DNA of 64,000 bases, from NCBI GenBank assembly GCA_024278955.1, contig JAJRSE010000050.1, forward strand, positions 1,474-65,473. The letters are read 5' to 3'. The DNA comes from Planctomycetota bacterium (lineage in GTDB: Bacteria; Planctomycetota; Planctomycetia; Pirellulales; Lacipirellulaceae). Positions 51,104 to 54,095 of the stretch are shown one piece after another. How positions within the stretch are numbered: position 1 is the stretch's first letter; each line of letters begins with the position of its first letter. Made by a program: the position numbers and the translations under genes. The notes under the pieces are model-generated. The model had not been told where the DNA came from. It did not search any database and worked only from the letters and a program-made list of their open reading frames with translations.

Positions 51104-51175
51104 TTATTGGCGATGCTTCAAGGAAATTTTTAACGCAGAGTTCGGAGAGGACCGCAGAGATTATGTTGAGTCGAG

Positions 51176-51255
51176 GTAGGCCGGAACAAGCCTGCGCAGC
51201 TCCGGCATTTTGTTCGATCTCTTGCCGGAACTGCGTAAAACTTGTTCCGGCCTAC
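51176..51255. repeat. GTAG-family REP doublet (REPIN-like)
   Basis: GTAGGCCGGAACAAG (51176-51190) / CTTGTTCCGGCCTAC (51241-51255); inner GCGCAGCTCCGGCA / TGCCGGAACTGCG. Confidence 0.85.
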
Positions 51256-51413
51256 TTCTGCGGAACTTGTGCAGAGGAGATTATCGCATTTTTGGGGTGG
51301 CGATGCGAAGGTTGTTTTTGGCCGGTTCGATGGGCTCAATCGCTGCATCGTTCGAGACGAGGCAGGCGGCACCGGCAACCTGCGGCATTTTCATTAGAAC
51401 CAGCAGTGGCAAG

Positions 51414-51574
51414 TGGCTACAATGCATCAACGAGCCGGCTACCGAAGCGGAGCTTGAAGCCATTCGCCAAAGCTGCCGACGAGCAGCTCCTGCGGTAGCA
51501 CGGATTGGACTGAGAAAACAGCAAGAAAGTTAGGCTTACAAGCAACAATGCGACGAGCGGGAAGACCTAAAAAG
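51414..51574 (+). pseudogene. C-terminal remnant of a Y1/RAYT-type (IS200-like) transposase
   Basis: WLQCINEPATEAELEAIRQSCRRAAP / frameshift / GSTDWTEKTARKLGLQATMRRAGRPKK. Confidence 0.7.
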
Positions 51575-51723: not shown

Positions 51724-52134
51724 TTACTTCCGCCAACTCGAAACGACGAGACCGTCTATCCACTCGAAGTGTGCCGTATTACCTGTTACCAAGGTGCGAT
51801 GCTGATTCAAAGCCGTGGCAGCGATGATGACGTCGGCATCCGTCCTTGGTTTACCGAGTTGCTTCCCTCTAGCCCACAAGCTAGCCGCTAGATCGAGGAT
51901 TTCGGCTGTGACTGGATAAATCGTCATGGACTGACAGAGCTGGTCAAAGGCGGACAGCTTCGTTGTGGCTTTAATCGCCCGTAGTCCACGCACGATTTCA
52001 AAGTACACCATCCCTGAAATAGCAAACTCGCCATGCTCACGAATATAGGCGGCAGCGTTAACAACTACGTCTTGGTTTTGTTGTTTCAGGATTTCTGACA
52101 GCGTGTCAGTATCCAGTACGCAGAGATCACTCAT
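51724..52134 (-). CDS. vapC: PIN-domain toxin
   Basis: LDTDTLSE, FEIVRG, AASLWA, DADVIIAATAL..TLVTGNTAHF. Confidence 0.92.
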   Translation of the reverse strand: MSDLCVLDTDTLSEILKQQNQDVVVNAAAYIREHGEFAISGMVYFEIVRGLRAIKATTKLSAFDQLCQSMTIYPVTAEILDLAASLWARGKQLGKPRTDADVIIAATALNQHRTLVTGNTAHFEWIDGLVVSSWRK

Positions 52135-52385
52135 AGGATCGGCTGGTCACGGCTAGGTGATCTTTGTATGGCTTCCTCGAAAAGTGCTGTCGTAGCATCA
52201 TCCAAGTCAGCAAGAATCGCATAGTCCTCGATTGAGGGTTGCGTCGTTTGCACATCTTCTGCGTCCACATCCAACACTTGTACGATGATGCGTTGATTGT
52301 CGGCAAGATGTTTGCCGAGAAACTGCTCGATGGCCACTCGTTCGTCAGCCGCCATGTCGGTGATATTGCGAGAAATAGTTTCCAT
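52131..52385 (-). CDS. Putative antitoxin (VapB-like partner)
   Basis: 84-aa acidic ORF (METISRNITD...) with ATGA overlap into vapC. Confidence 0.7.
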   Translation of the reverse strand: METISRNITDMAADERVAIEQFLGKHLADNQRIIVQVLDVDAEDVQTTQPSIEDYAILADLDDATTALFEEAIQRSPSRDQPIL

Positions 52386-52704
52386 GTTTGAATTATACCA
52401 CACATCGGCCGGCTCACACTGCGGTAGCCCACCACTTTCGGACAGAGTCGGGACCTTCGGTACTAGCTCCGAAGGAGATTTTAGATGGACATCCCGAAAG
52501 CCGATGGCGCACATCGGAAAACTACCCTCACAATTAGACGGGGCGCAAGCAGCGTAGGGGCGTCTTATTCAAAATTCCTACGTGGCGAAATCGCCCTGGC
52601 GCGAATAGAGTCGTTTGACATCGTGCAATCCTTCCAAAATGACCAATCCGGTAGTCTACCGAATTTTTCGTGGTTAGGACGCACAGCCAAGCGTTGGCCG
52701 GTAC

Positions 52705-52752
52705 ACGAAATGCGATTGTTTCGTCGGGATTTCTTGAAGCTCCTCGGGCAAG
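52705..52752. repeat. 48-bp direct repeat containing the tRNA-Asn 3' end (att-like), copy 1
   Basis: 47/48 identical to 53651-53698; last 16 bp match 54020-54035. Confidence 0.9.
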
Positions 52753-52802: not shown

Positions 52803-53561
52803 TTAAGAGCGGTATCCGTCGACTGTTTCTTTAACGTGAACAGGATTTTTGAGACCACCAACCATGATTTCAACTTCACCATGCCCAGCACTTGCTATCG
52901 AGACAGAACCGACGCCCATGATTCGCTGGAAAAACGACTGGTCGACCTGCAATAGCCGAACGTCTGAGTGCCTGACTTCCCGTGTTCGCTTTGACAAGAT
53001 TCCACGTCGGAGTATTGACCGCTTGTTTATAATGGTCAGCAACGTAGTGAATGACGAAAGGAAGTCCCGCAGTAGGATAAAAACTGCCAATGCTGGAAAG
53101 ACCCACAGCATTAGGATTTCACCATTGGCGGCAACAATCGAACCAACGAGCAAGACAGAAATCAGGAATAGCATAGAAACCGGCGCGTTGCGAAACACCT
53201 TTGGCCGAACAGTAAGGAGATCGTGCTCTTTTGAATACCCCGACTTGGCAGCTGTTGCATGCTGCACTACAGCCACTGGTCCTACTGGCGGCGATGCAAC
53301 CGGTGCATTGGTCCTATCGGACCCGTCTAAAAACTCGCCGCAATGGCGACACTTTCTAGCAGATGCCTGGATCAGTTCTGAGCAAAACGGGCAGGGCACT
53401 GTAGATGGCCTAGCCTCTTGGTTTGGTGGCAATGAGGGGGGGACTGTTTGCGGGATGCTGATCTTCCCGCCACACCCTGGGCACTTGGCCGACTTGCCGG
53501 CGTACTTGCTCGGCGCCTTGATCCCTTTGCCGCAGCTTGGACATTCAACACGTATCGCCAT
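52803..53561 (-). CDS. Zn-ribbon plus bPH_2-like membrane protein
   Basis: CPSCGK..CPGCG, CPFCSE..CRHCG; two TMs; TNKR-like IINKR..RGILSK...V.QSFFQRIMGVGSV. Confidence 0.85.
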   Translation of the reverse strand: MAIRVECPSCGKGIKAPSKYAGKSAKCPGCGGKISIPQTVPPSLPPNQEARPSTVPCPFCSELIQASARKCRHCGEFLDGSDRTNAPVASPPVGPVAVVQHATAAKSGYSKEHDLLTVRPKVFRNAPVSMLFLISVLLVGSIVAANGEILMLWVFPALAVFILLRDFLSSFTTLLTIINKRSILRRGILSKRTREVRHSDVRLLQVDQSFFQRIMGVGSVSIASAGHGEVEIMVGGLKNPVHVKETVDGYRS

Positions 53562-53682
53562 CGCTTCCCCTCGGAAAGATCATTCTATTGACAAATCTAG
53601 TGTACTTGGGCAACAATCAAAATCAAAAGGCGTCCTGCCGTGCCGCGTAAACGAAATGCGATTGTTTCGTCGGGGTTTCTTG

Positions 53683-53754
53683 AAGCTCCTCGGGCAAGAC
53701 TCGAACTTGCGACAAGGCGGTTAATCCCGGCGTGCCGGGACCTGCTCTACCAAC
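53683..53754 (-). pseudogene. Partial tRNA-Asn copy with the 5' anticodon-stem strand replaced by a 16-nt palindrome
   Basis: 53683-53724 identical to 54020-54061; 53741-53754 identical to the D-arm (54068-54081); TCCCGGCGTGCCGGGA lies between. Confidence 0.9.
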
Positions 53755-53761
53755 GCCAATT

Positions 53762-54021
53762 CTATTCTTGATCGGCCAACAGATTTCCGCGATTCCAACG
53801 CGCCGACTTCATGGAGTTAATTCGACGCTCTCGTCGAACGGCTGAGGGTCGGTCAGCATGTTCTTCAGACCAGACAAGCTTCCAGGGACCGTTCTTGGGG
53901 GCATATTTGGTTTTTGGCAAATCCAGATCGTTGTGTTCGCCAACCGCCGCTGTAGATCTTTGGTTTGCCCCGTGTAGAACTTTCCTTCCGGATTCCGCAG
54001 TATGTACACAAAGTAACTCAA
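53762..54021 (-). pseudogene. Frameshifted small GIY-YIG nuclease
   Basis: YFVYILR..GKFYTGQTKDLQRRL / 1-nt shift near 53940 / EHN..KYAPKNGPWKLVWSE..AVRRERRINSMKS. Confidence 0.88.
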
Positions 54022-54022
54022 G

Positions 54023-54095
54023 CTCCTCGGGCAAGACTCGAACTTGCGACAAGGCGGTTAACAGCCGCCTGCTCTACCAACTGAGCTACCGAGGA
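54023..54095 (-). tRNA. trnN: tRNA-Asn (GTT)
   Basis: TCCTCGG/CCGAGGA acceptor stem, AGCTCAGTTGGTAGAGC D-arm, anticodon loop CTGTTAA, GTTCGAG T-loop; CCA not encoded. Confidence 0.97.

Follow-up and report, generated by a model that had tools for sequence, protein, structure and literature searches.

The 64-kb stretch of Planctomycetota DNA analysed here (the window) contains a single tRNA gene, a tRNA-Asn(GTT) on the minus strand (54095-54022; ARAGORN, Rfam). Immediately behind that gene lies the subject of this report, a small cassette composed of a frameshifted gene for a GIY-YIG nuclease and a partial, hairpin-bearing copy of the tRNA (Table 1). The TTG start codon of the GIY-YIG open reading frame (ORF) occupies 54021-54019, 1 nt past the tRNA end at 54022. 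The ORF opens as MSYFVYILRNPEGKFYTGQTKDLQRRLA, changes frame near 53937/53938 and resumes in the other frame as EHNDLDLPKTKYAPKNGPWKLVWSEEHADRPSAVRRERRINSMKSARWNRGNLLADQE, terminating at a TAG stop at 53764-53762. The tRNA is repeated from 7 nt past this stop, first as the D-arm fragment GTTGGTAGAGCAGG, which is followed by the palindrome TCCCGGCACGCCGGGA and then by 41 nt of tRNA sequence that extend from the anticodon loop to the 3' end. The palindrome stands in place of CGGCTG, so that the copy is missing the 5' anticodon stem together with the leading half of the anticodon loop. Positions 53685-53724 match 54022-54061 over 40 nt with 0 mismatches, and the identity continues for 2 nt further, to 53683/54020. 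An exact repeat of 40 nt was found in 0 of 100 shuffles, with 0 expected by chance. The period of the unit is 337 nt. A sequence-only reading of the locus had already placed the TTG 1 nt past the tRNA 3' end, recognized the two-part tRNA repeat behind the stop (14 + 39 nt in that reading, 14 + 41 nt here) and the replacement of CGGCTG by a hairpin (the 16-nt palindrome at 53725-53740), and proposed that the gene was frameshifted within a unit of about 340 bp; all of these descriptions were confirmed. What it had missed was a third copy of the tRNA 3' end (16 nt), with 36 nt of flank, at 52701-52752.

Table 1. Features of the tRNA-Asn/GIY-YIG locus in the window.
Feature	Position	Strand	Evidence
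Intact tRNA-Asn(GTT), target/host gene of the cassette	54022-54095	-	ARAGORN; Rfam RF00005, 67.6 bits
Stand-alone GIY-YIG nuclease gene, 86 codons if repaired	53762-54021	-	ORFs; Pfam PF01541, E=3.8e-15
D-arm fragment GTTGGTAGAGCAGG of tRNA-Asn, 5' part of the tRNA-like copy	53741-53754	-	14/14 identical to 54068-54081
16-nt palindromic hairpin TCCCGGCACGCCGGGA, in place of CGGCTG	53725-53740	.	Alignment; folds as 8-bp stem
tRNA-Asn copy, anticodon-loop TTAA to 3' end plus 2 nt	53683-53724	-	100% identical to functional gene
Native tRNA downstream flank, displaced behind the cassette; weak stem ACGAAA..TTTCGT	53647-53682	-	Sequence; repeated at 52701-52736
Third, partial copy: tRNA 3'-terminal 16 nt and 36 nt of flank	52701-52752	-	50/52 identical to 53647-53698

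The downstream tRNA copy (53683-53754) does not have the makings of a functional tRNA. The alignment showed it to have neither a 5' acceptor strand nor an anticodon, and it was called neither by ARAGORN nor by Rfam at E<=1. A wider Rfam scan of 51-56 kb at E<=1 identified the true tRNA only, with the tRNA-like copy and the hairpin unmatched. The possibility that the duplication was an assembly artefact, which had been named as one possible objection to the sequence-only reading, was addressed by comparing the region with contigs from public hydrothermal-vent and marine metagenomes. The duplication is not such an artefact, since an independent contig (run X1) from a strain about 95% identical spans 53683-54049, and thereby the copy, the gene and part of the tRNA. 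In this strain, and in a second run, one extra C follows 53937, giving ..RRLAEHN.. and restoring the frame, and this extra C is the exact repair that had been predicted from the homologs. The window copy of the gene therefore carries a 1-nt deletion near 53937/53938 and has no uninterrupted reading frame. The deletion represents either a real pseudogene or a sequencing error of this assembly, and we best read the window copy as a decayed, frameshifted member of a cassette family. With its start codon directly against the 3' end of the tRNA, the gene is probably transcribed as part of the tRNA transcript. A promoter and terminator scan of the window region returned nothing on the tRNA (minus) strand.

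The frame-repaired 86-aa product matched PF01541 over residues 3-70 with 56.4 bits against a cut-off of 22.6 (E-value in Table 1). Y6, G18, R26 and E65 show no variation in the homolog alignment, in which Y16, H30 and N31 are conserved in at least 90% of the sequences; all seven residues are present in the window protein. Pfam, the alignment and a sequence search of the PDB agreed that the protein is a GIY-YIG core without a separate DNA-binding domain. The PDB entries identified were 1zg2 (BH0048; E=9.3e-7) and 1ywl (EF2693; E=2.3e-5), both of which have been placed in the prokaryotic Slx1-like lineage as minimal domains of unknown function with a presumed role in repair (PMC1564403). At 86 aa the product is also within the size range of stand-alone GIY-YIG proteins of the Slx1-like/UPF0213 type (about 80-110 aa). 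A search with the repaired protein returned 42 homologs, of which the nearest are from Planctomycetales and which include intact ones that are 66-70% identical, and the family as a whole amounted to 3,325 clusters (50% identity) at E<=1e-3 and 115 at 1e-10. The ratio of non-synonymous to synonymous substitution rates (dN/dS) had a median of 0.26 between loci (137 pairs) and was 0.05-0.4 within arrays where the copies differ by more than a few bases; array pairs only 7-8 nt apart gave higher ratios that are unreliable. These ratios indicate that the GIY-YIG protein is under purifying selection. No match to the window protein was found among the PADLOC defence models, and no relatives of the GIY-YIG protein were found on the viral contigs of IMG/VR, so that nothing points to an origin in phages.

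In 9 of 25 homologs the ORF continues across D-arm remnant and hairpin and ends at the TAA of the anticodon loop, with tails of the type ..NGRVPTRRD, and the cassettes thus yield ORF C-termini that are encoded by tRNA-derived DNA and a hairpin. Four further proteins of 166-214 aa (P0047, P0055, P0078 and P0084) contain two GIY-YIG stretches each and are probably read-through fusions of tandem units.

To determine how widely the arrangement recurs, we scanned one genome per species. The scan identified 80 loci in Planctomycetota, Verrucomicrobiota, Acidobacteriota and a small number of other groups, some of them on complete chromosomes or in isolates such as Verrucomicrobium sp. BvORR034 (L064). 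The loci were re-annotated with tblastn and ARAGORN, and a tRNA was scored when it was upstream of the first GIY-YIG gene on the same strand. A tRNA-Asn(GTT), ending between -3 and 139 nt before the gene (median about 15), is directly upstream in 50 of the 80 loci. The remaining loci comprise two with tRNA-Met, one with tRNA-Thr, one with an odd tRNA-like call (a full-length pseudo-tRNA with the hairpin as its anticodon arm), seven in which the contig start was too near for a call, and 19 with no tRNA called, most of which have tRNA-Asn 3' remnants or hairpin-bearing pseudo-tRNAs. The association of homologs with flanking tRNA sequence that the sequence-only reading had asked to be checked was therefore borne out. 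Tandem arrays of two to six units are present in about 20 loci, showing that the units amplify in tandem.

Five of the 42 homologs (L001, L003, L005, L006 and L007) were examined with their surrounding DNA. Locus L001 is syntenic with it (STAS, HATPase_c_2, tRNA-Asn, GIY-YIG), and its layout is the same to the nucleotide: a TTG directly behind the tRNA and, past the stop, GTTGGTAGAGCAGG, TCCCGGCGCGCCGGGA and TTAACC up to the tRNA 3' end. The gene starts +1 to +3 from the tRNA 3' end in the window, L001, L003 and L010. There are five tandem units with a 378-bp period in L005, where each unit has a tRNA-like end with hairpins at both the anticodon arm and the T loop, and two units in L007; the unit of L003 is preceded by the end of another unit and that of L006 by a tRNA 3' remnant. 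Other loci depart from the Asn type. The GIY-YIG gene of L028 is 65-70% identical to the Asn-linked genes but is situated behind a tRNA-Thr(TGT), and downstream of it TCCCGACGCGTCGGGA is joined to positions 36-76 of tRNA-Thr. The family has therefore switched its tRNA target between Asn and Thr. A separate lineage (36-44% identical; L050 and L082) is found behind an initiator-type tRNA-Met, with TCCGGCAGCTGCCGGA in place of the 3' anticodon stem of the tRNA-Met copy. In the Bacteroidota, TCCCGAAAGCATTCGGGA replaces the whole anticodon arm at a tRNA-Ala(GGC) and the duplication takes in the terminator (L088), while a different hairpin, TGGCGCG-NNN-CGCGCCA, is present at a tRNA-Pro(TGG) (L089). 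Together, the Asn, Thr, Met, Ala and Pro cases indicated that the phenomenon spans at least five tRNA species and at least four phyla, and we are nearly certain of the module architecture and of the family.

Three further observations concern the surroundings of these units. Upstream of the tRNA-Ala in L088 (1220-1390) there are two tandem pseudo-copies, each with its tRNA 5' half complete, with the hairpin TCCCGATAGCCATCGGGA and with a T arm cut short, which shows that hairpin-bearing fragments pile up on both sides of the functional gene. In L006/L008 (1-1350) the cassette, with its upstream tRNA cut to a 21-nt remnant, is beside genes for an ERF recombinase and CsrA, a setting that could be prophage-like; no relatives were found in IMG/VR. 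ARAGORN called full-length hairpin pseudo-tRNAs in L085 (2284-2361) and L013 (2962-3046) as 'tRNA-???' with 4-nt anticodons (cgcg and cctg, respectively). The program reads the hairpin as a surrogate anticodon arm, which may be a source of odd tRNA calls in annotations.

Among the 98 gene copies with enough downstream sequence, 78 have a TCC(C/G)G...C(C/G)GGA hairpin within 90 nt downstream, and in 65 of those 78 it abuts (T)TAA. Flanking sequence more than 400 nt away served as background and gave eight such hairpins in 255 kb (0.031 per kb), an enrichment of approximately 240-fold, in agreement with the link between homologs and TCCCG-N-CGGGA hairpins that the sequence-only reading had anticipated. 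There are 78 distinct hairpin sequences, the commonest being TCCCGGCGCGCCGGGA and TCCCGAC-NN-GTCGGGA. The outer TCCCG/CGGGA is conserved, whereas pairs 6 and 7 covary (GC/GC, AC/GT, AT/AT, AG/CT, CC/GG), with stem-interior variants GGC/GCC, GAC/GTC, GAT/ATC and GAG/CTC; the stem is 7-9 bp long and the centre, of 0-5 nt, is freely variable. The conserved base together with the covarying interior argues against neutral decay and for selection acting on a hairpin or palindrome.

The hairpin has a structural rather than a fixed position, which varies between lineages. Usually the 5' anticodon stem and half of the loop are replaced, as in the window, whereas in Pyrinomonadaceae the hairpin is behind the loop TTAA and replaces the 3' anticodon stem. 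The hairpin is present on both sides in L059 and L040, a second hairpin replaces the T loop in L005, L007, L027, L038, L053, L057 and L077, and a further one replaces the D loop in L046. Two adjacent hairpins in L018 (about 2760-2810), TCCCGACTTATCGGGA and TCCCGATAAGTCGGGA, are exact reverse complements of one another and flank a remnant of the anticodon stem. At four loci (L046, L067, L078 and L085) the arrangement is mirrored, with the hairpin in an upstream full-length tRNA copy and the intact tRNA downstream. The claim of the sequence-only reading that the hairpin belongs to the downstream tRNA copy thus holds for the window, but elsewhere either flanking copy may carry it; in every unit inspected the rule held that at least one tRNA copy beside the gene is disrupted by a hairpin, the other being intact. 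The mirror loci argue against a role of the hairpin at the 3' end of an mRNA and for one at the level of DNA, and they also show that a full-length tRNA can receive a hairpin by transfer where a second functional copy is present.

The hairpin was rejected as a dispersed repeat of the repetitive extragenic palindromic (REP) type, with a single occurrence in the 64 kb of the window. As an intrinsic terminator it was also rejected: no T run is behind it and the terminator scan of the minus strand was empty, and a terminator is further contradicted by the ORF running through the hairpin in 9 of 25 homologs and by the upstream hairpins of the mirror loci. We also considered a collapsed acceptor stem of tRNA-Asn, given the pair TCCCCGA/TCGGGGA against TCCCGA../..TCGGGA, but by eye the hairpins do not covary with the acceptor stem of each genome's own tRNA, and the idea fails for the Ala and Met types as well. 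When the tRNA-like region was folded as RNA and as DNA the hairpin formed, while overall stability equalled that of shuffled sequences (z of 0.17 and -0.20). Stem mismatches, used as a strand test for an RNA hairpin, were split too evenly to be informative (ten G-T vs seven A-C), and RNA sequencing data for L078 gave only word matches at the level of the tRNA (shares 0.04-0.08).

The tRNA-like copy is derived from the local target tRNA. Its 3' part has a mean identity of 0.89 to the tRNA-Asn of its own genome, compared to 0.72 to the tRNA-Asn of other genomes; it is 100% identical in 21 of 39 loci, and in 30 of the 39 no tRNA-Asn from another genome matches it better than its own. The lower identities stem from second hairpins. 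In an alignment of the window with L001, the two tRNAs have four differences in the 3' part and each copy matches its own gene. The most telling case is L028, whose copy is derived from tRNA-Thr although its gene resembles the Asn-linked ones. The D-arm relic is perfect against its own tRNA in 19 of 49 cases, as opposed to 34 of 49 for the 3' part.

Empty sites, a comparison that had been proposed together with the sequence-only reading, came from a search of metagenomes that used the adjacent HATPase_c_2 protein as its anchor and yielded 15 syntenic loci. Four of these relatives (L093, L095, L097 and L098; HATPase 62-71% identical to that of the window) have no GIY-YIG gene, and their tRNA-Asn is followed by unrelated flank or terminator; L099 is an occupied syntenic site. 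Compared with these empty relatives, the occupied L001 is less closely related to the window (HATPase 50%, STAS 70% and GIY-YIG 66% identical). Occupancy is thus patchy, which means that the unit was gained repeatedly, was lost precisely, or both. Like a free-standing homing endonuclease gene, therefore, the GIY-YIG gene has both occupied and empty alleles (adjacency to tRNA-Asn in 50 of 80 loci and four empty sites). No integrase or transposase was identified within 1.5-3 kb in seven annotated loci or in the window from 43.9 to 61.2 kb, consistent with the absence of an integrase reported by the sequence-only reading, and a transposase-like fragment at 51163-51533 was discarded as it had no Pfam support. 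The notion of a small autonomous element put forward in that reading is supported by the arrays, the pseudogenised copies, the Asn to Thr switch and the lack of an integrase, but it requires amendment in that the tRNA part is derived from the local target and is not carried along unchanged. We consider it very probable that the cassette is a selfish element gained and lost at a conserved site.

Metagenome contigs L091, L094 and L096 end inside or at tRNA-Asn, the end of L091 being the anticodon loop. Such breaks are expected if the repeated tRNA parts of the cassettes disrupt short-read assembly, and the cassettes break metagenome assemblies at tRNA-Asn and give rise to 'tRNA-???' calls. An exact-pattern metagenome scan for the junction of tRNA 3' end and flank returned 0 hits.

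The explanation we favour, and to which we give slightly better than even credence, is that the window holds a decayed copy of a small, selfish, nuclease-driven cassette that lives behind tRNA genes and in which part of the target tRNA is duplicated. A cassette of the family has three parts: a single gene for a minimal GIY-YIG nuclease of the Slx1-like/UPF0213 type without a DNA-binding domain; a brief relic of the D arm, with which the ORF end is often fused; and the neighbouring tRNA duplicated from its anticodon loop to its 3' end, with the anticodon arm (and, in some lineages, the T or D loop) replaced by the conserved GC-rich TCCCG..CGGGA hairpin. We speculate that the nuclease cuts or nicks the DNA of the tRNA gene at its stem-loop regions, and that recombinational repair then copies the cassette, with tRNA sequence on both sides providing homology, in a homing-like process comparable to that of phage SegB. 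The outcome of the repair would be one intact tRNA and one redundant partial copy. By analogy with such systems we place homing-like repair a little short of an even chance as the mechanism. In the redundant copy the hairpin may take over the nuclease-sensitive stem-loop and so render the copy refractory to cutting, and it would also break a direct repeat that could otherwise delete the cassette; protection as the role of the hairpin is put forward more tentatively. Precise recombination between the remaining 41-nt repeats could produce an empty site with a plain tRNA. The arrangement ties a substantial part of the function-unknown Slx1-like/UPF0213 family to a concrete genomic behaviour at tRNA genes.

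Several points weigh against this explanation. The bare 86-aa GIY-YIG core has no obvious means of sequence recognition. The intact tRNA beside the cassette would stay cleavable, so that an allele with the element would lack immunity of the classical kind. Inter-species homing would yield a chimeric tRNA, with the 5' half of the recipient and the 3' half of the donor. The conservation of TCCCG/CGGGA across proteins that are only about 40% identical is more than disruption of an arm requires. The insertion common to the window and L001 is in synteny, which makes long vertical residence, and with it some host-level function, possible. Lastly, the spread across phyla, the Asn to Thr switch and the near-perfect local identity are better fitted by a mechanism that duplicates its target.

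A mechanism of that kind is the main rival, although we think it unlikely overall. It would be a structure-specific insertion with a long target duplication, in which the mobile DNA is restricted to the GIY-YIG gene, the D-arm relic and the hairpin. The Slx1-like nuclease would nick extruded stem-loops, namely the anticodon loop and the base of the acceptor stem or the terminator, the unit would be joined between the two nicks, and fill-in would duplicate tRNA positions 35-76. The hairpin would then represent the right end of the element and, by acting as a cis site or by halting a polymerase, would fix the junction at the TAA of the loop. This would account for a duplicated segment that always comes from the local tRNA, mostly with 100% identity, for the joining of an Asn-type gene and hairpin to positions 36-76 of tRNA-Thr, and for the sharp boundaries of the unit, with the hairpin abutting the (T)TAA of the anticodon loop and the gene start abutting the tRNA 3' end (+1 to +3). 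The D-arm relic, being less faithful to its own tRNA than the 3' part (19/49 vs 34/49 perfect), is consistent with it, as is the place of the protein in the structure-specific Slx1 lineage (PMC1564403; PDB 1zg2/1ywl) without a DNA-binding domain. By contrast, the D-arm part of L010 (19 nt) is identical to that of its own tRNA, so that the hairpin is flanked by target-like sequence on both sides; the second hairpins at the T loop and the mirror loci (L046, L078, L085) would need extra events; and the duplication of L088 continues through the terminator. We also know of no transposition system with target duplications of 40-90 bp.

It is improbable, in our view, that the cassette is a non-mobile module that serves the host, in which a housekeeping Slx1-like nuclease for repair or RNA processing would be transcribed together with tRNA-Asn and the hairpin-bearing tRNA fragment would be a regulatory or processing element of the operon. 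The conserved synteny of the window and L001, the purifying selection on the protein and the start codon abutting the tRNA 3' end would all suit such a module, as would the lack of matches on IMG/VR viral contigs and the vertical inheritance attributed to the prokaryotic Slx1-like family in an earlier survey (PMC1564403). It is difficult to reconcile, however, with closer relatives being empty while the more distant L001 is occupied, with arrays of up to five to six units, truncated or frameshifted copies and solo copies that have tRNA remnants only, with the several tRNA partner species and the Thr/Asn switch, or with mirror loci in which the hairpin is not downstream of the ORF.

Still less probable is a guide-type system, in which the hairpin would be a protein-binding handle (as RNA or single-stranded DNA) and the tRNA-identical flanks would pair with the tRNA gene, by analogy with guide RNAs derived from transposon ends. 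Its attraction is that a bare 86-aa GIY-YIG protein would be programmed to the adjoining tRNA gene, giving a nucleic-acid- or structure-guided homing system much smaller than TnpB/IscB, which would explain the retargeting to Asn, Thr, Met, Ala and Pro. The conserved base and covarying interior of the hairpin, flanks that always match the local target even after a change of target, and a protein without a DNA-binding domain are in keeping with this idea, but the fold is no more stable than that of shuffled sequence (z about 0), the stem mismatches show no strand bias (G-U vs A-C, 10 vs 7) and the ORF often runs through the hairpin. To our knowledge, moreover, no GIY-YIG enzyme is nucleic-acid guided. 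Scarcely plausible is the remnant of an integrase island, in which the 41-nt repeat would be an attL/attR pair duplicated from the 3' half of the tRNA, with the GIY-YIG gene as leftover cargo. The block of identity from anticodon loop to tRNA 3' end is like classical tRNA attachment (att) sites and the separate 52-nt repeat at 52701-52752 resembles one, but neither the window region nor any annotated homologous locus has an integrase, the unit is only about 340 bp, and the D-arm block, conserved hairpin, arrays of identical units and one recurrent gene are unlike att duplications.

The 52-nt direct repeat itself (52701-52752 and 53647-53698, 50/52 identical) consists of the last 16 nt of tRNA-Asn, from just past the T loop, and 36 nt of flank. 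Its two copies bracket a gene on the minus strand (52803-53561) for a 252-aa protein with a double zinc ribbon and a bacterial PH domain. The repeat looks like the mark of a second, separate att-like insertion outside the GIY-YIG unit; no integrase was found near the repeat pair. In the contig of the related strain (run X1), 52798 and 53620 are immediately adjacent. The 252-aa gene is therefore absent from that strain and represents a strain-level indel whose ends differ from the 52-nt repeats. Just beyond the repeat, the region 51724-52514 holds a gene for a VapC-like PIN-domain protein (51724-52134) and, upstream of it and with a 4-nt overlap, an ORF of 127 aa without a family match; the two are likely a toxin-antitoxin pair.

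With respect to known systems, no description of tRNA-linked minimal GIY-YIG cassettes or of hairpin-substituted tRNA copies was found in a literature search with incomplete full-text coverage, and as far as we found the cassette family is undescribed. At their att sites, tyrosine-integrase islands duplicate the part of the tRNA that lies between the anticodon or T loop and the 3' end, with the functional tRNA restored. The cassette is similar in that its direct repeat corresponds to the 3' part of the tRNA (41 nt here), yet this part is preceded by the D-arm block and hairpin, and the cassette also differs in its 340-bp unit, its arrays and the lack of an integrase. It is not an integrase island, because neither the annotated homologous loci nor the 43.9-61.2 kb portion of the window contains a recombinase. 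Mobile GIY-YIG ORFs of fungal mitochondria (e.g., that in atp6 of Allomyces) insert at the 3' end of a gene and leave a displaced duplicate of its 3' part downstream. They share with the cassette the combination of one functional gene and a displaced duplicate 3' part, but their target is protein-coding, the displaced fragment decays, and there are neither hairpin substitutions nor arrays.

Elements of the IS200/IS605 type, with their end-derived guide RNAs (PMC13565253), resemble the cassette in being small and in having a conserved terminal hairpin beside target-matching sequence. The cassette has neither an HUH (Y1) transposase nor TnpB/IscB and has its hairpin on one side only, and an element of this type was rejected on the grounds that the sole ORF is the GIY-YIG gene and the hairpin is one-sided. 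The likeness to Slx1-like/UPF0213 proteins is more direct, comprising equal size, the lack of an auxiliary domain and sequence similarity, although a link to tRNA genes, arrays and hairpin-bearing tRNA copies are unmentioned in the survey of that family (PMC1564403).

SegB is a free-standing GIY-YIG homing endonuclease of T4-like phages (PMC2330249; PMC13096335) that cuts inside tRNA genes at RAWTSGAAC, whose gene is enriched beside tRNAs of many isotypes and which drives a nuclease- and recombination-dependent tandem amplification of the tRNA-segB segment (PMC13096335). The RAWTSGAAC motif reads as the T loop. What SegB and the cassette have in common is a GIY-YIG gene amid tRNA genes and tandem amplification. 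SegB is approximately 2.5 times larger than the cassette protein and has a C-terminal DNA-binding part. It is a phage protein, whereas the bare 86-aa Slx1-like core described here is found on bacterial chromosomes, no close sequence relationship is detectable beyond the GIY-YIG motif, and a hairpin-substituted partial tRNA copy has not been described for SegB. The cassette nuclease is thus not of the SegB family, being much smaller, devoid of a DNA-binding domain and not located on phages. SegB is the closest known system, and the only relevant analogue that we found, to a nuclease gene that resides and multiplies beside tRNA genes in this manner.

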